Assembly: GCA_963707025.1 (NCBI GenBank)
Contig: CAVPOM010000004.1
Coordinates: forward strand, 448,001 to 512,000
Origin: an uncultured Verrucomicrobiae bacterium
GTDB taxonomy: Bacteria > Verrucomicrobiota > Verrucomicrobiia > Limisphaerales > Palsa-1400
DNA: 64,000 nucleotides
Reading direction: 5' to 3'
The stretch's first letter is position 1. Each line of letters starts with the position of its first letter. The notes below the pieces were generated by a model. That model was not told the origin of the DNA. It did no database searches and saw only the letters and a program-made list of their open reading frames with translations. This document shows, in pieces, positions 13,767 to 39,080 of this stretch. The position numbers were made by a program, and so were the translations under genes.

Positions 13767-13850
13767 TGGTGCGCGAGAGAGGATTCGAACCTCCACCCCT
13801 TGCGGGACCAGATCCTAAGTCTGGCGTGTCTGCCATTCCACCACTCGCGC
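13767..13850 (-). tRNA. tRNA-Leu, anticodon TAG
   Basis: Minus strand reads GCGCGAG-TGGTGGAATGGCAGACACG-CCAGA CTTAGGA TCTGG-variable arm-GGAGGTTCGAATCCTCT-CTCGCGC-ACCA. Long variable arm, encoded CCA. Confidence 0.97.
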
Positions 13851-29245: not shown

Positions 29246-30394
29246 GCTTCAAACCTTACCAGCTTGGCGAGCAATTCGTCGTTGGTCTTGTGCTTCTTGA
29301 GCGCGGCGGTGAGCGTTTCCATCGCTTCGATGGGATTCAAGTCCACCATCATGCGGCGCAGTTTGCGGATGGCTTCGATTGTTCTTGGCGGGAAAAAGTT
29401 TCTCCTCCTTGCGCGTGCCGCTCTTGGGAATGTCAATGGCCGGGAACAGGCGGCGGTCGGAAAGCTTGCGGTCCAGAATCAGCTCCATGTTGCCCGTGCC
29501 TTTGAACTCCTGGAAAATCAGTTCGTCCATGCGCGAGCCGGTGTCCACCAGCGCCGTGGCCAGGATGGTCAGCGAGCCGCCTTCTCGATCTTGCGCGCCG
29601 AGGCGAACATCTTGCGCGGGAATTTCCAGCGCGCGCGCGTCCACGCCGCCGGTCATCGTGCGGCCGCTGCCGCCGTGCACGCTGTTGTAGGCGCGGGCAA
29701 TGCGCGTGAGCGAATCCAGCAGCACAAAAACGTCCTTGCCGGCTCTCCACCATGCGCCGGCAGCGCTCGATCATGAAGCGCGAGAGGCGGACGTGCGTTT
29801 CCAGATCCTGGTCGTTGGAGGAGGCCACGACCTCGGCCTTGACCGAGCGCTGGAAATCGGTGACTTCCTCCGGGCCGCTCGTCAATCAGCAGCACCATGG
29901 CGTGGACTTCGGGATGATTGGTGGTGATGGCGTTGCAGATCTGCTTGAGGATGGTGGTCTTGCCGGTGCGCGGCGGGGCGACAATCAGGCCGCGCGTGCC
30001 CTTGCCGATCGGCGTGACCAGGTCAATGACGCGCGTCTCGATCAGGTCGGGGCTGGTTTCCAGCTTGAACTTTTCAATGGGGTCAATGGTCGTCAGATTT
30101 TCGAAGCGGACGGCCTTGGTATAGTCCTCGAAGGGCATGTCGTTGACCTTGTTCGACGGCCTTGAGCTGCGGGCTGGTGCCGCGATGCGGCGGCTGGGTT
30201 GGGCCGGCGACGAGGCTGCCTTCGCGCAGGAAGCTGCGCCGGATGGTGTCCGGCGTGACAAAGATGTCGCGTCGGCTTGGGGTGGAAATGGTTTTGCGCG
30301 GTGCGCAGGAAACCGAAGCCCTTTTCGGAAATTTCCAGATAGCCGGAGCCGTAGTCCGGCGATGTTGTCGCCGTTGTTGTTGTGCGTTGCTCAT
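29242..30394 (-). CDS. rho: Transcription termination factor Rho (frameshifted)
   Basis: [91 protein letters not shown]. Confidence 0.93.
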
Positions 30395-30666
30395 AAATGT
30401 GTTTGTAATGTGCGAAGGCCTAAAGAATTATCCCGAAAACTCGGTATTGAACTTTGAATTTTTGGAGAACTGACCGTGGCGGCTCACTCCACTGCACATC
30501 TCGCCCAACGCGACAGTCGCATCAAACCTTCGACATGCCTATTTATTACCGGCGCAAACCCGGCCGCGCAACCGCCTAACACAGTTTTCTTGCCGGAATA
30601 CAATTGGCACAATGGCCGGATCTCCATCGATTCCATCGCTCAAATCCGCCGTCAACTCAACGGCTT

Positions 30667-31656
30667 TCAACCGCCCACCGCCGCGCGCGCCTCCGCCGCC
30701 AGCGGCGTGCTCAAATAGCGTTCGCCGGTGGAACAGGCGATGGTGACGATCAGTTTGCCCTTGTTTTCCGGGCGTTTGGCCACTTCGATGGCCGCCACGA
30801 CGTTGGCGCCGGACGAGATGCCGCACCAGAATGCCTTCTTCCTTCGCCAGCCGCCGCGCCATGGCAAACGCGTCGTCGTTGGTAACCTGAATGCATTCGG
30901 CGATCTGCGGATTGCCCTTGCTGTCCTTCAAATGCAGGTTTTTGGGGATGAAACCCGGCGCCGAGTGCCCTGAATCTTGTGCGGGCCGGGCTTGAGCGGC
31001 TGGCCGGCCAAGCGTCTGGGAAATCACCGGCGAATCCTTCGGCTCCACCGCAATGGCCGTGAAACGACGGCTTGCGCGGCTTGATGACTTCGACGCAACC
31101 GGTGATGGTGCCGCCGGTCCCGACCGCCGCGACCAGAATGTCCACCTTGCCGTCGGTGTCGGCCCAGATTTCCTCGGCCGTGGTCTTGCGATGAATTTCA
31201 GGATTGGCCGGATTGTCGAACTGCTGCGGAATCCAGGAGTTCGGCGTTTCCTTGGCCAACTGCTCGGCCTTGGCGATGGCGCCTTTCATGCCTTCGGCGC
31301 CGGGCGTCAAAACCAGCTTCGCGCCCAGCATCGCCAGCAGCGTGCGCCGTTCCAGCGACATGGTTTCGGGCATGGTCAGAATGAGCTTGTAACCCTTGGC
31401 CGCGGCGACGAACGCCAGCGCGATGCCGGTGTTGCCGCTGGTCGGCTCGATGATCACCGTGTCCTTCTTCAGAACGCCGCGCTTTTCGGCGTCTTCAATC
31501 ATGGACATGCCGATGCGGTCCTTGACGCTGCCGAGCGGATTGAAAAACTCGCACTTGAGCAGAATGGTGGCGTGCAGCGCCGGCGGTGACTTTGTTCAGT
31601 TTGACCAGCGGCGTGTGCCCGACGGTTTCGACGATGTTATTGTAGATGCGTCCCAT
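30667..31656 (-). CDS. cysK: Cysteine synthase A (frameshifted)
   Basis: [59 protein letters not shown]. Confidence 0.93.
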
Positions 31657-31803
31657 AAGAATCAATCGGGTTAATATTCTTGCAACTTTTACTTTCGACG
31701 CTGCATTTTGGCGCAACGTTCGATCAGGGCAAGCGTTTTTTTGGGGTTTTTGGGTTCCCCCGCGGCCGATTTATGAAGTTCCTGGTGTTCTTATGGTCCA
31801 GGG

Positions 31804-31901
31804 TCAAGATGCAAAAAAAAGATGAACCCGAGCCAGTCCAGCGACCCGGGCCAGTTCTGCCTGCGCGGCGTCGCAAGTAATGAACATTTTTCAATTTTCA
31901 C
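31804..31901 (-). pseudogene. Remnant of a PIN/VapC-type toxin gene, most of the body deleted
   Basis: GTG AAA ATT overlaps the antitoxin stop, followed within ~15 bp by MFITCDAAQAELARVAGL, a typical PIN C-terminal motif. Confidence 0.6.
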
Positions 31902-32146
31902 CGTCGTCGTCGTTGCCGTTCCTGCAATACCGGGTTGGGAACACGATCTCTGGATTTAACGCTCTTTTGCGCGCGCCAGACTTCGGCCATGAGGTCAGGC
32001 CAGCCGGCTGGCTCGGCGGCGGCCAGGGGCTCGATCCGCCCGATGGTCCGGCCATTGCGGGTGATGAGCAAAGACTCGCCCTGCTCAAGTTGGTTCAAGA
32101 CCGCCTTGGTTTCCTGGTGCAATTGTTTTGCCGTGATGATGCTCAC
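31898..32146 (-). CDS. Phd/YefM-family antitoxin
   Basis: ITAKQLHQETKAVLNQLEQGESLLITRNGRTIGRIEP. Confidence 0.8.
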   Translation of the reverse strand: MSIITAKQLHQETKAVLNQLEQGESLLITRNGRTIGRIEPLAAAEPAGWPDLMAEVWRAQKSVKSRDRVPNPVLQERQRRRR

Positions 32147-32292
32147 ATCCTGAAAGTAAGACCTTCAAAGTGTCTCCACAAGCCCAAGACTTTCCAGAAA
32201 AGCACTTCGTCCATTTCCTGGCGGAAGAACCAGCTCTGGATTCCCTGCGACGGCTGCTTGGGATTCCACCCATCCGGTATCAAGTTTCGAGT

Positions 32293-34922
32293 CTATGGCA
32301 CTTCGGGAAGCAGGCCGCTTTCCAGTGGGACGGGCTTTGCCTCCAGGCGCGCGACGGCGGGTTCCAGGCCGGGCCGGGCGGCGGTGAGGGTGATGACGCC
32401 GGGAGTCAGGGTCGAACGGATCGCCACGCGGTTGATGCCGCACTCGGTGTCGAGGTACAACTTGTTGACAGAGTTTGTCCGGCCGCTGTTGTAACCGCCG
32501 CGCCAAGTCGCCGGGCCGGTTACGCTGAAATCCACGCGGGCGGCGTCGGTCGGGCAGCGGCGGCCCTGGGCGTCCACGGCCTCGATGTCGAAAAAGGCCA
32601 CGTCGGAGGCGTCGGCTTGCAGGCCGTTGGGGCCGGTATGCGCAGTGAGCTTCAGGCGCCTGGGTTCGCCGGCGGTTTGGATTTCGTCCTGGGCGGCGGT
32701 TTGGCCATTGCGGGTGGCGACGGCCTTGATGGCGCCGGGTTCAAATTTGATTTCCGGGAAGGCAAAAATATAGCCGGTGTCTCCGTAATCAGTGGTTCGG
32801 TTGTTGTAGGTGTCCACGAAGTGCAACGGCTGGCGGGCCGCGCCCAAAGATTTGCCGTTGACGAAAAGTTCCACCGCGTCGCAATGACTGGCCGCGACGA
32901 AAATGGTTTTCACCGTGTTGGACGGGTAGGTCCAGTGGCCGATAATGTGGATGTCCGGGTCCGGGTTTTGCATGACGCGATAGACATAATAGGCCTGCTT
33001 GGGCAGGCGCACCGCATCCACTTTGCCGCTGACGCGGCAGACTTCGCTGCTGTCCTGGCGGCCGTCGGCGTTGGCATCGGACCAGTAAATGGAGGCGTAG
33101 CCGGACCATTTGGAGTGGGCCGGGTCCGGGTTGGAAATGCGGTTGCTGAAGTAATCGTGGTAGCGGGCGGCGGCGGCCAGGCAGAAAGTCTCCGAGTTCC
33201 AGTGATAAGTGTCTTTGGGGCCGGGCTTGAAGCCGTAGTGGGGAGGGGAGAAGTCGTCCCAGAATCTCCGGGCGGCTTCGTCGCGAAAATCCTCCGTCTC
33301 GATCAGCGGCGCCTTGTCGCGGCGTTCGGCGCTGTAGCCGCGAAAGATGTCGGTTTTCCCGCTCAACCGGTCGGTGCGCGGGTCCTGGCCGATCATCACG
33401 CCGTAGTACTCCGCAATGGGCGTCAGGGCGGTGTTGGCCGCGTTGTCGCTGTTGCCGCGCGTGCCCATGACGCGGCCGCCCTCGGGGTCCCATTGCTGGC
33501 GCAAGGCCACCATCTGCCGCATGTGCTCCGGCGTCACCACCGTGTTGCCCGCTTCCCAGAAAACTATGCTGGGCGTGTTGCGATAGAAGATGATGGAGTC
33601 GCGCATGACTTCCAACCGCTGTTGCCATTGCAGCGCGGCGACATCCGGCGGCAGACGGCGATCCAGAACCGGGTCGCCCTCCTTGTCGCCGGCGGGACAG
33701 ACTTCAATGAGGCCGGCTTTGTCGCAGGCCGAGACATCGGCGCGCTGGGGCGAGATGTGCATCCAGCGGACGTAGTTGGCGTGGGTGCTGCGCACCAGCG
33801 CGGCGTTGAAGTCATGCATCCAATCCGGATAGGCCTGGCCCAGCCCGGCCCAATCGTCCGAGGCCCGTTGCGCGTAGCCGGTGAGCCAGACGAAATGGTC
33901 GTTCAGCCAGACGCCGCCCTGGCCCGCGCCGCCCTTGAATTCAGCCTTGCGAAAGCCGGTGCGCGTCCGGCAAACGTCCACCACTTTGTCGTTGACCGTC
34001 AGGACCGTGTAAACGTCGTAGAGATACGGATCGTTCACATCCCAGAAACGCGCGGCCGCCAGCGGCCCGCCGGCGGCGAGGGTTCCGGTCTGGCCGCCGT
34101 CCAAAGCAGAGGCCTCCCCTTGGAATTTGGCCCGCACCACGCCCCCGGCGTCCACCACCACGGCGGACAAGGCGACCGATTGGGCATCGGCGGATTCATT
34201 GCGCACCTGCGACTGGATGGACAGATCGCAGCTTTTATTGGCGATGGAAAAATGCGACGGAACGATGTAAAGGCCCGTCGTCTTGAGGTTCTCGTAGAGG
34301 GGCAGGGTTTGATAGATCTTGCCCGTCAGGATCAGGCGGATGTCATGATTCAGCCCGCCGTAGTTGGGATTGAAGGCCCGGCCCATCCATTCAAATTCCG
34401 CGCCGGATTCCTCCTTGTAATTGTTGCTGTTGTCCACTTTGACGGCCAGGAGGTTGTCGGCGCCGCCAAAATTCACCAGTTCGGTCAGGTCCAGCCCGCA
34501 GGGGGTGATGCCGTTTTCGTATTTGCCGGCGAATTTGCCGTTGACCCAAAAACGGCCCGCTTGTTTGAGCCCTTCAAACTCCAAAAAAACTTTCCCGCCT
34601 GCCGCCTGGCCGGCAGCTTGAAATGCTTGCGATACCAGGCGATGCCCGCGTAGGGGCGCCGGTCGCCGCCGCTGTGGTCAATGAGGCCCTGGTAAGAGTC
34701 GGTGTCGTTGTAAGTGTGCGGCGCGCTCACGCTCGCCCAGGCCGAGTCGTCGCAATCCATCTGTTGGGCATTGGCGGCATCCTCGCGGATGAATTTCCAG
34801 CCGGCGTTAAAATTATAAATGGCGCGCGGCGAAGGCGGGGGCGCGAAGGGCGGGCTGCCGGCGCCAGCGGCCAGCGCCCCGGCGGCCAGCAACCCGGCGG
34901 CAAGAGCGGTTGCAGTTTTCAT
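32293..34922 (-). CDS. GH2-family glycoside hydrolase, secreted (frameshift near 34600)
   Basis: Signal MKTATALAAG. YNFNAGWKF, WYRKHF, EFEGLKQ, NYGGL, TGFRKAEF, PSIVFWEAGN, HIIGHWTYP, VELFVNGKSLG. Confidence 0.85.
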
Positions 34923-34986
34923 TTTGTGATATTCTGCAAGGTAAAACGGCGGCAGCACTCGGTCGAGGGAATTATGGGTGTACGCC

Positions 34987-35023
34987 AAAAAGCCCCCGCC
35001 CAGTCTTGCGACTGCGCGGAGGC
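34987..35023 (-). terminator. Rho-independent terminator closing the putative large ncRNA
   Basis: Minus strand GCCTCCGCG-CAGTC-GCAA-GACTG-GGCGGGGGC-TTTTT. Confidence 0.75.
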
Positions 35024-35855
35024 AAATTGGGGATGGGAGTTCGCCACTCTCTCTTTCCCACGCTGACATTAGGCGCGCCCTCGCGGGGCTGCCAGCTTCC
35101 CGACGCCATTCTCCACGGCAAGCGGAGTCTTCGGCCTCATAGCAGGGCCGTCCAGCGCCTTGCGGTCGCTGAATCATCGAGTGAGGCTTTTCAGCTCGCT
35201 TGGGCTGGTGGTTGCGACACCGGCTTGCGAACCAGGTGAAGACACGCTTGTGACTGCGGTTCCGCGTCTTCACCGTTTAGCGCTGGGTCGGCCGCCGCTT
35301 TTGGCGGCGCGTTGGCCCAGTGCCACGGGTCTCGCCTCTTATCTCTCAGGTTGCATTTCGCTCACAAGCCAGCGGCGCCGTTTTTAACATCGCCGGCCTT
35401 TTGGAAGGTTTTCACGAGACCATGCCTGGGCCTGCGTGTCCTTCCCGGTTGCGAAGACGCCGCTTTGTCCCGCCTTTCGGCGTCTTTACTGGCGACCGGT
35501 TGCAGAGGCCGGCAGAGTCGCTCCTTCCGTGCTGATGCGCAGTAGCAACCGTTTACCCTCTGGGTAACTGCGATTCCCCCAGGCCCGAAACCTGCCTGAG
35601 CTACTTGACCCGGCTCGGAACGGTTTCTCTTTCGTTCCTGGCCGCTCAGTTCCTCTTTCGCGTTACTGACGGCGCGCGAACGCCGCCAGAGGAACTGGTG
35701 AATTCTGCCTCCGGTCTCCGCTCCTTGCGAAGCGGACTTAGAGGGGCTGGGCCAACCAGCCTGACTCAACCTTTCCCCAGTCACCTGGGATTATCTTGGA
35801 TGTTCCGCAACTTTCTTGCGTCCGCCGCGGGCATCCGCGTTCTTTCAAGGAACTG
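34987..35855 (-). ncRNA. Putative large (~870 nt) structured non-coding RNA; MISL/GOLLD-like size class, family unassigned
   Basis: No credible CDS. Continuous hairpins on the minus strand, many with GNRA loops (UCCCAG-GUGA-CUGGGG, UCCGCUUC-GCAA-GGAGCGGA, CGCC-GAAA-GGCG, CAGCGACC-GCAA-GGCGCUG, CCC-GCGA-GGG). Helices 35647-56/35688-97 and 35235-46/35263-74. Flanked by a putative promoter and terminator. Confidence 0.8.
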
Positions 35856-36037
35856 TCCACAAATTAGCACAACTGGCAAAAAAAAGTATCAAATGTTATG
35901 CACAGGTTTGTTCACCGCCGACCCCACTTATTCACCGCCGCCCGCCGCCACAATCCTCAACATTGACGGGCTTTTTTCCGCATTCAGTCAACATAATTCC
36001 GACGCCCGATCCGCCGCGCCCCGCCCGCGGTGGATAA
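35853..36037. promoter_or_regulatory. Cluster of DnaA-box-like 9-mers
   Basis: TTATGCACA 35896-35904 fits TTWTNCACA. Near matches: CTGTCCACA 35853, TTGTTCACC 35908, TTATTCACC 35928, TTTTCCGCA 35974, and TTATCCACC on the minus strand at 36029-36037. Confidence 0.5.
35861..35892 (-). promoter_or_regulatory. Putative sigma70 promoter of the large ncRNA
   Basis: Minus strand TTGATA-ctttttttt...-TGC-TAATTT (extended -10; the -35 spacing is long). Confidence 0.5.
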
Positions 36038-36081
36038 GTTTTTTTCGCAAAAACCGCGAAATCCTGCCGGAGCGCCGGCCC

Positions 36082-36312
36082 TCAGGCCGCCGCCGGCGCC
36101 GCCGGCGCCACCGGGGCCGCTGCCGCTGCTGGGGCCGTTGCTGCCGCCGGGGCCGCCGCCGCCGCTGGGGCCGTTGCTGCCGCCGGGGCTGCCGCCGCCA
36201 CTGGCGCTGCAACGGCCTTCTTCGGCGGTTTGGTCTTGGCAGCGGTCTTTTTGCGTTTGATGTGTGCGACGCGCCGCTGGCGCTTGAGGACTTTGTTATA
36301 TTGCTTGCCCAT
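36082..36312 (-). CDS. Small very basic protein with an Ala/Pro tail
   Basis: MGKQYNKVLKRQRRVAHIKRKKTAAKTKPPKK followed by AAAPAA repeats. Confidence 0.75.
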   Translation of the reverse strand: MGKQYNKVLKRQRRVAHIKRKKTAAKTKPPKKAVAAPVAAAAPAAATAPAAAAAPAAATAPAAAAAPVAPAAPAAA

Positions 36313-36355
36313 AATTCGTTGCCTTATGCTCGGTTCAGTTGTTAATTGGAGCAAT

Positions 36356-36925
36356 ATGAAGTTTTGGCTGCGTTCATTCAATATCTATTTGTTGGCGGCT
36401 GCGGCCGCTCTGGCCAGCGGCTGCGGTTCAAACTTCTTCGGCATGAAAAAGGAATACTCCACTTTGCGCGTTTATTTGGAGGGGTCCCCGGCCGAGTCGT
36501 CCATGGTCTATGTGACGCGCGCCAAGACCCCCATGTACGTCGCCGCCGAGCCGTTCCTCACCGAAGAGGATGTCAGCCGGGCCAAGCTGGTGGACAATCC
36601 GGACGACACCTTCGACATCCAAATCACCTTCAATGATCACGGCGCGCTGGTGCTGGACATGACCACCACCACCAGCCGGGGCAAGCATCTCATCATCTTT
36701 TCGCATTTTCCCCCGAAAGGCTGGAAGCAACCGCAGGACACCGGCGTTGACGCCGTGGCCAAGCCCGAGCCGGGGCAGCCCCGCGTTTCCGGCTGGCTGG
36801 CCGCGCCCTTGATCCGGACCGGCCTGTCCAATGGCTCGCTCAAGTTCACCCCGGACGCCACCCACGAGGAGGCGGAACGGATCGTGCGGGGATTGAACAA
36901 CACGGTGGCGGATGCGGATAAATAG
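36356..36925 (+). CDS. Lipoprotein with a SecD/F P1-head-like domain
   Basis: LASGC lipobox, PFLTEEDVSRAKLV, IQITFNDHG..L...T, AAPLIR, EAERIVRGLN. Confidence 0.65.
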   Translation: MKFWLRSFNIYLLAAAAALASGCGSNFFGMKKEYSTLRVYLEGSPAESSMVYVTRAKTPMYVAAEPFLTEEDVSRAKLVDNPDDTFDIQITFNDHGALVLDMTTTTSRGKHLIIFSHFPPKGWKQPQDTGVDAVAKPEPGQPRVSGWLAAPLIRTGLSNGSLKFTPDATHEEAERIVRGLNNTVADADK

Positions 36926-36939
36926 GCCTGGCCACTGCT

Positions 36940-37952
36940 ATGTCGCGGATGCGGTTATTTTTTTTGGCGGCGGCGGTTTTGGGGTGGAGCGCGGCGGTCC
37001 GGGCGCAGCCGTTTTTTTTGCCGACGGCCAATCACGCCTTGTTCGAGAAGGGGAAGGAGGCGGATTTTTTTGTGCCCACGCCCGGCAAGACGTGGGAAAC
37101 CGGCTGCTTCGGCTGCGTGCGCACCGACCGCCGGCAAATGCACGAGGGGCTGGACATCAAATGCCTGCAACGCGACAGCCGCGGCGAACCGGCCGATCTG
37201 GTCCTGGCCACCGCCGCCGGCACGGTGGTTTACCTCAACGACCGCCCGGCCCTTTCCAATTACGGGCGTTATCTGGTCCTGCGCCATCTCATCGGCGGCA
37301 TGGAAGTCTATTCCCTTTACGCCCATTTGCACTCCCTGCGTAGCGATCTCAAGGCCGGCCTGGCGGTGCAGGCGCAGGAACCGGTGGCCGTGATGGGCCG
37401 GACCTCCAACACGGCGGAAACCATTTCCAAGGAGCGGGCCCATGTCCATTTTGAGTTGAATTTGTTTTACAGCGATCATTTCGCCGCCTGGTACAAAACG
37501 CATTTTCCCGGGGAACGCAATGATCACGGAGTGTGGAACGGGGAAAACCTGGTGGGGTTCGACCCGAGCCTGGTCCTGCTGGCCGAGCGGGAGGAGGGGA
37601 CAAATTTCGACTTGACATCCTGGCTGCAACACCGCGCCGCCTTGTGCCGCGTGCTCGTGCGCAAGACCGATGTGCCCTGGGTCAAGCGGTATCCCATGCT
37701 CCTCGCCCCCAATCCGACCGCGCAAAAAGAGGGCGTGGCCGGATATGAAATCGCGCTGGACTACAACGGCCTGCCCTTCGCCTGGGTGCCGCGCGCCGCC
37801 TCCGAGATCAAGGGGCCCGCCAAATACCGCCTCCTCTCCGTCAACGAAGCGGAGGAAACGCAAAACCCCTGCCGCAGGCTGGTCCGGCAGCAGGCCGCCG
37901 CTGGCAACTGGCCCCCTACGGCATCAGCTTGCTGGACCTGTTGACGCAATGA
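36940..37952 (+). CDS. M23-family metallopeptidase (frameshift near the 3' end)
   Basis: HEGLD, NYGRYLVLRH, SLYAHL, AHVHFE. The alternative frame ends LLDLLTQ*. Confidence 0.88.
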
Positions 37953-37964
37953 GGTCATGCCGCC

Positions 37965-39080
37965 ATGAAAAGAACCAGGCCCGTCCTTCTCGCCGCGCTG
38001 CTCCTGGCCGCCCCGGCGGCGGTGCAGGCCCAATTCAGTTACACGACCAATAACGGCGCGATCACCCTCACCGGATACACGGGGGCCGGGGGTGCGGTGG
38101 TCATTTCCAATTTCGTCACCGGCATCGGCGGGTTTGCGTTCTATAACAACACCAGCCTGACCGGCGTCACCATTCCCGGCAGCGTCACCAGCATCGGGGA
38201 AGGCGCGTTCTTTTACTGCACCAACCTGGCCGGCGTCGCCATTCCCGGCAGCGTGGCCGGCATTGGCGACTATGCTTTCGATAGCTGTTTCAGCCTGACC
38301 AACGCCACCATTGCCGACGGCGTCACCAACATCGGGCAGGCGGCGTTCGAGGAGTGCTCCAGCCTGGGCAGCATCACCGTTCCTGGCAGCGTGGCCAGCA
38401 TCGGGCCGTCGGCTTTCGATAGCTGCTTCAGCCTGACCAACGCCACGGTTGACTTCGGCGTCGCCAGCATCGGGGCGGCGGCCTTCTCTTACTGCGAAAG
38501 GCTGGCCGGCGCCGCCATTCCGGCCAGCGTCACCAACCTCGGCGACCATGCGTTCTATTACTGCTACCTCCTGACCAATGTCACCATTCCGGAGAGCATC
38601 ACCAGCCTCGGGGAATCTGCGTTTCAGAACTGCTCCAGCCTGGCCGGCGTCACCATTCCAGGCAGCGTCACCAACCTCGGCGAGGCGGCGTTCTCCGATT
38701 GCGCCAGCCTGGCCGGCGTCTATTTCAAGGGCAACGCTCCCGCCGCGGATTCGTCCGTGTTTGCTTCCGACAGCAACGCGACGGTCTATTATTTGCCTGG
38801 CGCCACCGGCTGGAGTTCGCCCTTTGCCGGCCTGCCGGCCCTGCTGTGGAACCCGAAGATCCAAACCGGCGACGGCAGCTTTGGCGTGCAAAACCAGCAA
38901 TTTGGATTCAACATCACCGGGACCGCCAACATCCCCATCGTGGTGCAAGCCAGTGCAAGTCTGGCCAACCCCGTTTGGACTCCGCTCCAGACCCTCACCC
39001 TCACCAACGGTTTGTACTATTTCAGCGAACCTTATCAGTCGAACCTCTCCGCCCGCTTCTACCGCATCACTTCCCAATGA
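37965..39080 (+). CDS. BspA-type leucine-rich repeat surface protein
   Basis: Signal peptide and 23-aa repeats IP.SVT.IG..AF..C..L. C-terminal Verrucomicrobia-type tail ending RFYRI. Confidence 0.92.
   Translation: MKRTRPVLLAALLLAAPAAVQAQFSYTTNNGAITLTGYTGAGGAVVISNFVTGIGGFAFYNNTSLTGVTIPGSVTSIGEGAFFYCTNLAGVAIPGSVAGIGDYAFDSCFSLTNATIADGVTNIGQAAFEECSSLGSITVPGSVASIGPSAFDSCFSLTNATVDFGVASIGAAAFSYCERLAGAAIPASVTNLGDHAFYYCYLLTNVTIPESITSLGESAFQNCSSLAGVTIPGSVTNLGEAAFSDCASLAGVYFKGNAPAADSSVFASDSNATVYYLPGATGWSSPFAGLPALLWNPKIQTGDGSFGVQNQQFGFNITGTANIPIVVQASASLANPVWTPLQTLTLTNGLYYFSEPYQSNLSARFYRITSQ

Follow-up and report, generated by a model that had tools for sequence, protein, structure and literature searches.

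A full-length MISL RNA and its conserved transcription unit in a Verrucomicrobiae genome

The subject of this study is an RNA gene in a 64,000-nucleotide (nt) stretch of DNA from an uncultured Verrucomicrobiae bacterium (assembly GCA_963707025.1, contig CAVPOM010000004.1, positions 448,001 to 512,000; hereafter the window, numbered from its first letter). A first-pass annotation had described the minus strand at 34987-35855 as a highly structured, free-standing RNA gene some 870 nt long, and took it for either a relative of MISL or GOLLD or a new class. An Rfam scan of the whole window gives a full-length match to MISL RNA (RF03079) at 35036-35796 on the minus strand (590.1 bits, cut-off 274.6, E = 1.1e-178), which spans model positions 1-751 of 751 without truncation, and only one other match, a tRNA at 13770-13850, lies above its family cut-off. 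A permissive search (E <= 1) of 34600-36300 returned no match to GOLLD, ROOL, OLE, tmRNA or group I/II introns, and the extra matches were at chance level (Spy779816, 22.4 bits vs a cut-off of 67; a 33-nt RNaseP-T fragment, 17.9 bits vs 60). The flagged object is a typical, full-length member of the MISL family, which is already catalogued. The RNA gene, its strand and its limits are therefore confirmed, as is the view of it as a large non-coding RNA with transcription of its own, but it is MISL itself, neither a relative nor a new class; the strong match removes the novelty, as the annotation had itself allowed for, and leaves the description as the strongest candidate for an undescribed system in the window unsupported. 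The family reportedly goes back to a survey by Weinberg et al. from 2017, the main text of which does not contain the word MISL.

The structure of the core (35036-35796, minus strand) is strongly conserved. The 875-nt unit folds on the minus strand at -390 kcal/mol, compared with -352 +/- 5.9 kcal/mol for 20 dinucleotide shuffles (z = -6.5), and the opposite (plus) strand has a z of -3.7. An alignment of 29 MISL copies (832 columns, mean column identity 79%) yields an RNAalifold consensus of 194 pairs, 94 of them with compensatory changes. Standard pairs fill 96.2% of the cells vs 34-44% after a shift of the 3' partners by 1-3 columns, and changes on both sides are seen in 95 of the 194 pairs vs 28-47 for slid partners. 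None of 500 shuffles reached the observed pairing measures; the structure was predicted on the same alignment as was tested, which is somewhat favourable to it, yet the margin is large. Many G-U pairs are invariant and fix the strand as minus, in agreement with the strand of the Rfam match and with the promoter and terminator described below. Moreover, the 29 homologues carry no coding signal: variable columns are spread evenly over the three phases (189/253, 180/254 and 186/254), 866 of the 917 gap runs are not a multiple of three, and the longest open frame varies in strand and place, none being common to all. This lack of three-base periodicity and of a common frame bears out the earlier statement that the gap holds no plausible protein.

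Single elements of the proposed fold fared unevenly. Three of the five helices named in the first-pass annotation are conserved in the family (GGUGAAGACGCG/CGUGUCUUCACC, CAGUUCCUCU/AGAGGAACUG and, in the leader, CCGCGGC/GUUGCGG), and the other two are not. The helix AAGACGCCG/CGGCGUCUU relies on letters unique to this copy, at a place where the family has a local hairpin capped by GAAA, and the supposed long-range pair GGGCCUG/CAGGCCC gives way to two local covarying hairpins. The GNRA-type loops, put at more than eight, number about seven in our count: four strict ones among the 19 hairpins of the consensus fold, two more in the fuller structure of Rfam and one on the terminator.

The conserved unit extends beyond the Rfam model on both sides. 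We compared the flanks of 58 loci with both ends recognisable; counts are given over 54 unique upstream regions, 53 or 54 unique leaders and 55 unique 3' flanks. The limits 34987-35855 fit this unit better than the Rfam model does, and both the promoter-like element upstream and the terminal hairpin with its U-run, first seen in this one copy, recur in the conserved flanks. On the 5' side the order is two tandem 9-mers, a weak -35, an extended -10, the word CAGTTCATTGAAAGAAC, a hairpin (35836-35798) and the first core base at 35796. The extended -10 (TGcTAATTT, 35861-35869, minus strand; TG at 35869-35868 and TAATTT at 35866-35861) corresponds in the upstream regions of relatives to the consensus tG.TAt..T, at a fixed distance 5' of a boxA-like word, and the transcription start is predicted at about 35853-35855, directly after this element. 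The leader hairpin (35798-35836, minus strand) is made of an outer stem GGAUG/CAUCC and the inner stem CCGCGGC/GUUGCGG. Its closing stem covaries: the longest stem has a mean of 6.83 pairs in the 53 unique leaders vs 4.86 when the arms are exchanged between sequences (200 permutations, maximum mean 5.35). RNAalifold on a MAFFT alignment of the leaders predicts only a possible hairpin of 4 base pairs (bp) at the boxA word.

On the 3' side, a linker CAUCCCCAAUUU (35024-35035, minus strand) lies between core and terminator, and a CCCCCAAUUUG-like linker is present in nearly all flanks listed. The terminator (34987-35023, minus strand) has a 14-position stem (35023-35010 with 35005-34992) with one G-G mismatch, a GCAA loop and the run UUUUU at 34991-34987; a simple promoter and terminator scan missed this mismatched stem. 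A hairpin at least as strong as -23.8 kcal/mol occurs in each of the 55 unique 3' flanks, in 52 of them with a GNRA loop. A strict U-tail rule holds for 44, and in the other 11, the window included, the scripted stem had swallowed the U run. Intrinsic termination near 34987 is highly probable. Overall, the best explanation is a single-copy gene for MISL RNA that is transcribed on the minus strand as an independent unit of about 870 nt, and we hold it with considerable confidence. The core shows no differences from the catalogued family, with which it shares sequence, structure, strand, phylum, single copy and free-standing position. What differs is the extent, as the Rfam model covers 761 of the roughly 870 nt, with the upstream boxes, the boxA word, the leader hairpin, the linker and the terminator all outside it; about 110 conserved bases of the unit could thus be added to the annotation.

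MISL is single-copy in its own 6.96-Mb genome. In a set of 41 related genomes (own included) it was found in 29, each with a single full-length copy (28 of the matches exceed the cut-off) and one genome with an extra fragment of 76 nt, and it matched none of 14 control genomes. The distribution in a sample of the phylum is patchy, with 9 of 151 genomes positive: our own, six of the eight members of one family and one each in two others. A search pattern built from invariant columns, which matches 28 of the 29 copies, was used on named public genomes and found at least 119 MISL loci. Verrucomicrobiota-lineage labels are carried by 75 of 80 titles among the matches listed (Opitutaceae, Lacunisphaera, Nibricoccus, Verrucomicrobiales, Limisphaerales, Pedosphaera and Chthoniobacteraceae occur among them), and the rest are four bins from other phyla and one unlabelled title. 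These four bins (L054, L069, L070 and L081) bear the names Bifidobacteriaceae, Sulfotelmatobacter, Dongiaceae and Saccharimonadales; their MISL contigs are probably mis-binned, because L054 and L081 show a gene order of Verrucomicrobia type around the RNA.

Some other large ornate RNAs belong to mobile elements or phages, and contigs in a viral collection also match the MISL pattern. That MISL should belong to a mobile element or phage is nevertheless extremely improbable, since just four of 2.9 million viral contigs match, all of them short (2.2-6.8 kb), the RNA is present once in this genome and once at full length in each relative that has it, synteny among housekeeping genes is stable across whole clades, and no integrase or transposase is adjacent in the window. 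MISL is not typical of phages. A role as substitute for a missing housekeeping RNA was ruled out as well, because RNase P RNA, tmRNA, 6S RNA (two matches) and SRP RNA are all encoded elsewhere in the genome.

The predicted transcript opens with a boxA-like word, GUUCCUUGAAAGA (35841-35853, minus strand). In the window it stands as GTTCCTTGAAAGA at 35853-35841, this copy reading GTTCCTTGAAA with C at the fifth place, and the family word GTTCATTGAAA is present in 45 of 54 unique leaders, with close variants in seven more. The ribosomal RNA (rRNA) operon of the same organism has GCTCATTGAAA in its leader, about 145 nt 5' of the 16S start, and GTTCTTTAACA and GTTCTTTGACA in its spacer. Under the pattern GYTCATTGAAA, GTTCATTGAAA is identical to the rRNA leader word GCTCATTGAAA, while the first spacer word, GTTCTTTAACA, fits perfectly the published gamma-proteobacterial boxA consensus GYTCTTTAANA (PMC5725501). 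We read the MISL word as boxA because it is near-invariant at the first transcribed bases and identical to the organism's own rRNA leader word. The near-palindromic GTTCNTTGAAAGAAC had also been considered as a repressor operator or a small hairpin, but the comparison with the rRNA operon led us to prefer boxA to both. It is fairly probable that boxA-dependent antitermination and assisted folding operate here, in which case NusB/NusE binding and a block of Rho would follow from the established role of boxA. The leader of the rRNA operon is alike in having a boxA-type word right after the promoter of a long, untranslated, structured and abundant RNA, and the MISL leader is probably removed from the mature RNA. 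It differs in that MISL is not ribosomal and in that no leader-trailer helix enclosing the RNA was found.

Upstream of the promoter we found DnaA-type boxes. Three are seen in the window (35896-35936, minus strand), all in the same direction: the proximal tandem box TGTGCATAA (35896-35904) matches TGTGNATAA perfectly, the distal tandem box GGTGAACAA (35908-35916) has two mismatches to it, and the box furthest upstream, GGTGAATAA (35928-35936), with one mismatch, was read in this window only. Among the 54 unique upstream regions, the proximal box lies 51 nt 5' of the boxA word in 45 and the distal box 62-63 nt 5' of it in 44, at a box spacing of 11-12 nt. At most one mismatch to TGTGNATAA is found in 48 of the 54, 16 of them perfect, and the opposite orientation in none (shuffle control: mean 2.3, maximum 6 of 54), so that the DnaA-box consensus TTATNCACA is matched at a conserved place in the promoter. 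At 36029-36037 there is a fourth DnaA-box-like word, TTATCCACC, in the orientation opposite to the other three. It is overlapped by a G+C-rich hairpin with a T run (36009-36045, plus strand), which is 5' of the MISL promoter and points to the divergent gene.

The composite of DnaA-type boxes occurs at six places only in the genome, among them the mraZ-rsmH promoter and the front of a ketoacyl-synthase/histidine-kinase gene pair. Upstream of dnaA, boxes occupy fixed positions in all 30 relatives examined, at 5.0 boxes per kb vs a background of 0.45, and tandem pairs are seen in 15 of them. Tandem boxes are also present upstream of mraZ in 20 of 30 relatives, including ones that lack MISL, where they lie 5' of the -35, with a run of GTGGG-type direct repeats 3' of it (loci L160-L189), which suggests that in this order the mraZ division operon may be under joint control of DnaA and MraZ. 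In our own genome the mraZ promoter boxes are at contig C18:339334-339354. Three tandem boxes at C18:677948-677977 (L156) precede a promoter-like site and the genes for a beta-ketoacyl synthase and a 7TM/GAF histidine kinase, and similar tandem boxes at C7:84001 and C5:539012 precede genes without a Pfam match. A replication origin at the boxes was rejected: nowhere in the genome do three or more relaxed boxes cluster within 600 nt, dnaA is on another contig, and the locus shows no GC-skew switch.

We lean towards DnaA-type control of the MISL promoter, with DnaA as the simplest candidate reader of the boxes. The arrangement, tandem 9-mers of one orientation that fit TGTGNATAA, spaced by 11-12 bp and 5' of the -35, resembles that of DnaA-regulated promoters such as the autoregulated one of dnaA, where 30 of 30 relatives have at least one box and 15 a tandem pair; the difference is that the target here would be a non-coding RNA gene, away from a replication origin. 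The tandem repeats might instead be bound by another factor, for instance a response regulator that reads direct repeats, and MISL would then be untied from replication control. Direct repeats with a period of 11-12 bp beside the -35 are indeed common among the sites of activators, and single 9-mers of the DnaA type are not enriched over the genome. Against this stand the fit of the repeats to the universal DnaA-box consensus (16 of 54 perfect, 48 with at most one mismatch) and the same boxes at a fixed place upstream of dnaA in every relative examined, and we regard another factor as unlikely, though it deserves to be kept in mind. MraZ in particular is disfavoured as the reader, because the GTGGG-type direct repeats in mraZ promoters, which we take to be the usual MraZ sites, are separate from the tandem boxes and lie 3' of the -35.

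MISL RNA is conspicuous in public metatranscriptomes. Of 24 runs listed, 20 hold 21-27% of the sampled words of the stretch, shares that reflect conserved parts of relatives and not this organism; these 20 are all metatranscriptomes, from 16 studies, and their habitats are peat, soil, sediment and wetland. The contigs of four runs from four studies were aligned to the stretch at 85% likeness or more, and 28,038 of 4,356,437, 42,446 of 2,250,813, 7,637 of 5,008,676 and 12,548 of 1,365,929 contigs fell on it. In these runs, chosen for holding MISL RNA, its share of all contigs is 0.15-1.9%. Virtually all matching contigs lie within 35006-35821, with summed depths of 1e5-1e7, and nearly all flank bins have depths of 0-13; these depths are sums over many organisms, and the non-conserved flanks are a poor same-organism control. 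Such depth, together with a swarm of variant contigs, is as expected of very abundant RNAs. The leader bin (35822-35872) has depths of 2, 321, 3,080 and 0 vs about 1e6 in the next bin, and the bin with the 3' arm of the terminator (34955-35005) has no cover; in both bins missing cover proves nothing. Contigs cannot show where an RNA ends. All four runs contribute to the seven of 32 listed pieces that end at 35794-35796, where the Rfam model begins, and none of the 24 loose ends listed, beside 925 others, falls there.

From these observations a scheme for the production of the RNA can be proposed. Transcription would start near 35854 from the extended -10 promoter, which DnaA or a factor reading the same sites may tune through the two tandem repeats centred about 46 and 58 nt 5' of the start, in the same box arrangement as is found in relatives at dnaA and the mraZ cell-division operon. 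The first 13 transcribed bases, as a boxA word, would recruit NusB/NusE, and RNA polymerase would then be resistant to Rho over the long untranslated RNA and allow co-transcriptional folding as in rRNA operons. The covarying leader hairpin would be trimmed off, leaving a mature 5' end at 35796, a step for which we see about equal chances of being right and wrong, and the transcript would end at the intrinsic terminator near 34987. The mature RNA, of about 760-800 nt, would act in trans and be very abundant and stable; that MISL is a trans-acting, stable and abundant RNA is very likely. In its full form the scheme has MISL made like a fourth ribosomal-type RNA, with a DnaA-tuned promoter of the dnaA/mraZ design, boxA-type Nus antitermination and a processed leader, and has it accumulate to a level that few non-ribosomal transcripts of Verrucomicrobia in soil, peat and sediment reach. 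We put this full form forward only tentatively.

Several points weigh against the scheme. Binding of DnaA and of NusB/NusE is read from sequence words alone; single DnaA-type 9-mers are no commoner over the genome than chance would have it (70 seen vs about 80 expected), and the looser boxA-type word GTTCNTTGANAN has about 50 occurrences of its own across the genome. The promoter has a weak or ambiguous -35, and a simple sigma-70 scan found no site. The compared sequences are related, which inflates the conservation counts. The selection of the runs means that the abundance figures are no unbiased survey, and the contig ends, which are not RNA ends, give a weak hint of a processed 5' end. MISL has no match in 12 of the 41 related genomes, and may be dispensable or have been missed in incomplete assemblies. 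In the literature we found nothing on the function of MISL; the Ribonanza preprint only uses, in its figure legends, a MISL RNA from Rfam to illustrate chemical mapping.

As to what the RNA does, its use as the core of a ribonucleoprotein or of an RNA assembly is favoured over catalysis, at roughly even chances of being correct. As a ribozyme, MISL would owe its size, invariant unpaired stretches and multi-domain fold to catalysis and not to a role as scaffold. Ribozymes are typically of such size and complexity, long invariant single-stranded segments (e.g. GAGACCCGU, GGCGUCGGGAAGC and GAGGCAgnAUUCACC) do lie amid the covarying helices, and removal of the leader just 5' of the first core base, weakly hinted at by the contig ends, could in principle be self-cleavage. 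However, apart from the chance-level RNaseP-T fragment no known ribozyme family matches at E <= 1, the gene neighbourhood differs between clades and suggests no substrate or reaction, and a stoichiometric or structural role would account for the very high abundance at least equally well, which makes a ribozyme improbable.

Among known systems MISL also stands close to OLE, ROOL and GOLLD, which are also large, with many covarying helices and GNRA loops, and whose function is likewise unknown or poorly understood. These three form RNA-only multimers (10.1101/2024.12.08.627333). MISL differs from them in matching none of their Rfam models at E <= 1, and in being chromosomal, single-copy and restricted to Verrucomicrobiota, with only four short matches in the viral collection. 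As an RNA class MISL is already known and in Rfam; what is added here is the architecture of its transcription unit, the abundance data and the box comparisons with dnaA and mraZ. It is one of the few very large bacterial RNAs without a known function, and in metatranscriptome assemblies from soil and peat a noticeable fraction consists of MISL RNAs. The precisely bounded transcription unit, the boxA of rRNA type with which it starts and the tandem DnaA-type boxes common to the dnaA and mraZ promoters provide testable handles, and leads to function are dependence on the cell cycle or growth rate, dependence on Nus factors, protein partners and the structure of the particle. If the comparison to a fourth ribosomal-type RNA is true, MISL would be a hitherto undescribed kind of ribonucleoprotein or RNA assembly, coupled to growth or to the cell cycle.

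The genes around MISL follow two clade-specific patterns, without a universal neighbour, which fits a trans-acting RNA. In loci labelled Opitutaceae, the upstream neighbour is a divergent HrpB helicase gene (20 of 72 loci), and the gene downstream encodes BipA or an unnamed protein of 660 aa. HrpB was considered as a dedicated partner and set aside, as it occurs only in this type of synteny. In loci labelled Verrucomicrobiales, Limisphaerales or Pedosphaera, and in the window, a divergent M23 peptidase and a protein of about 200 aa are encoded upstream, and a PALP enzyme, Rho and a WYL protein downstream. The window has the M23 peptidase at 36940-37941 (plus strand) and the small protein of about 200 aa at 36230-36922 (plus strand; 25% identical to the cluster representative, E = 5e-9). 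The PALP enzyme gene is at 31505-30750 (minus strand), where it covers profile positions 45-229 of 295 and is cut, and Rho is at 30258-29249 (minus strand) in two open reading frames (ORFs), 30258-29653 and 29722-29249. Between MISL and the PALP gene a GH2 gene is inserted, split by a frame change (34922-34488 and 34584-32296, minus strand), and this insertion leaves the RNA unit undisturbed.

The order MISL, PALP enzyme, Rho and WYL protein, which recurs in one clade, raises the question whether the RNA is a leader that acts in cis on the genes behind it, which in the window are GH2, the PALP enzyme gene and rho in turn. Among 76 loci, the first two downstream positions include the PALP gene in 17 and the Rho gene in 12, and the window keeps the PALP/Rho order with GH2 in between. 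However, a strong intrinsic terminator stands 3' of the RNA in all 55 unique flanks, Opitutaceae-labelled loci have other neighbours, GH2 could be inserted with the RNA unit intact, and a length of 760 nt with great abundance is unlike a riboswitch. A cis-acting leader is accordingly very improbable, and an RNA acting in trans is preferred.

GH2, PALP and Rho (29249-34922, minus strand) are three consecutive genes with broken frames, in a genome of 18 contigs and 88% completeness, which suggests assembly indel errors rather than pseudogenes. The product of the gene at 36230-36922 (plus strand) has a weak likeness to SecDF_P1_head, below the cut-off, and the gene lies divergently beside MISL in 12 other loci. 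An ORF at 36082-36381 (minus strand), perhaps the one earlier called a small basic protein gene, is of low complexity, rich in Gly, Pro and Ser, and has no Pfam match. Two further features of the window are ordinary: the tRNA gene at 13770-13850 (minus strand, 58.8 bits), and a gene for a BspA-type leucine-rich-repeat protein at 37965-39077 (plus strand; LRR_5, E = 2.5e-59).

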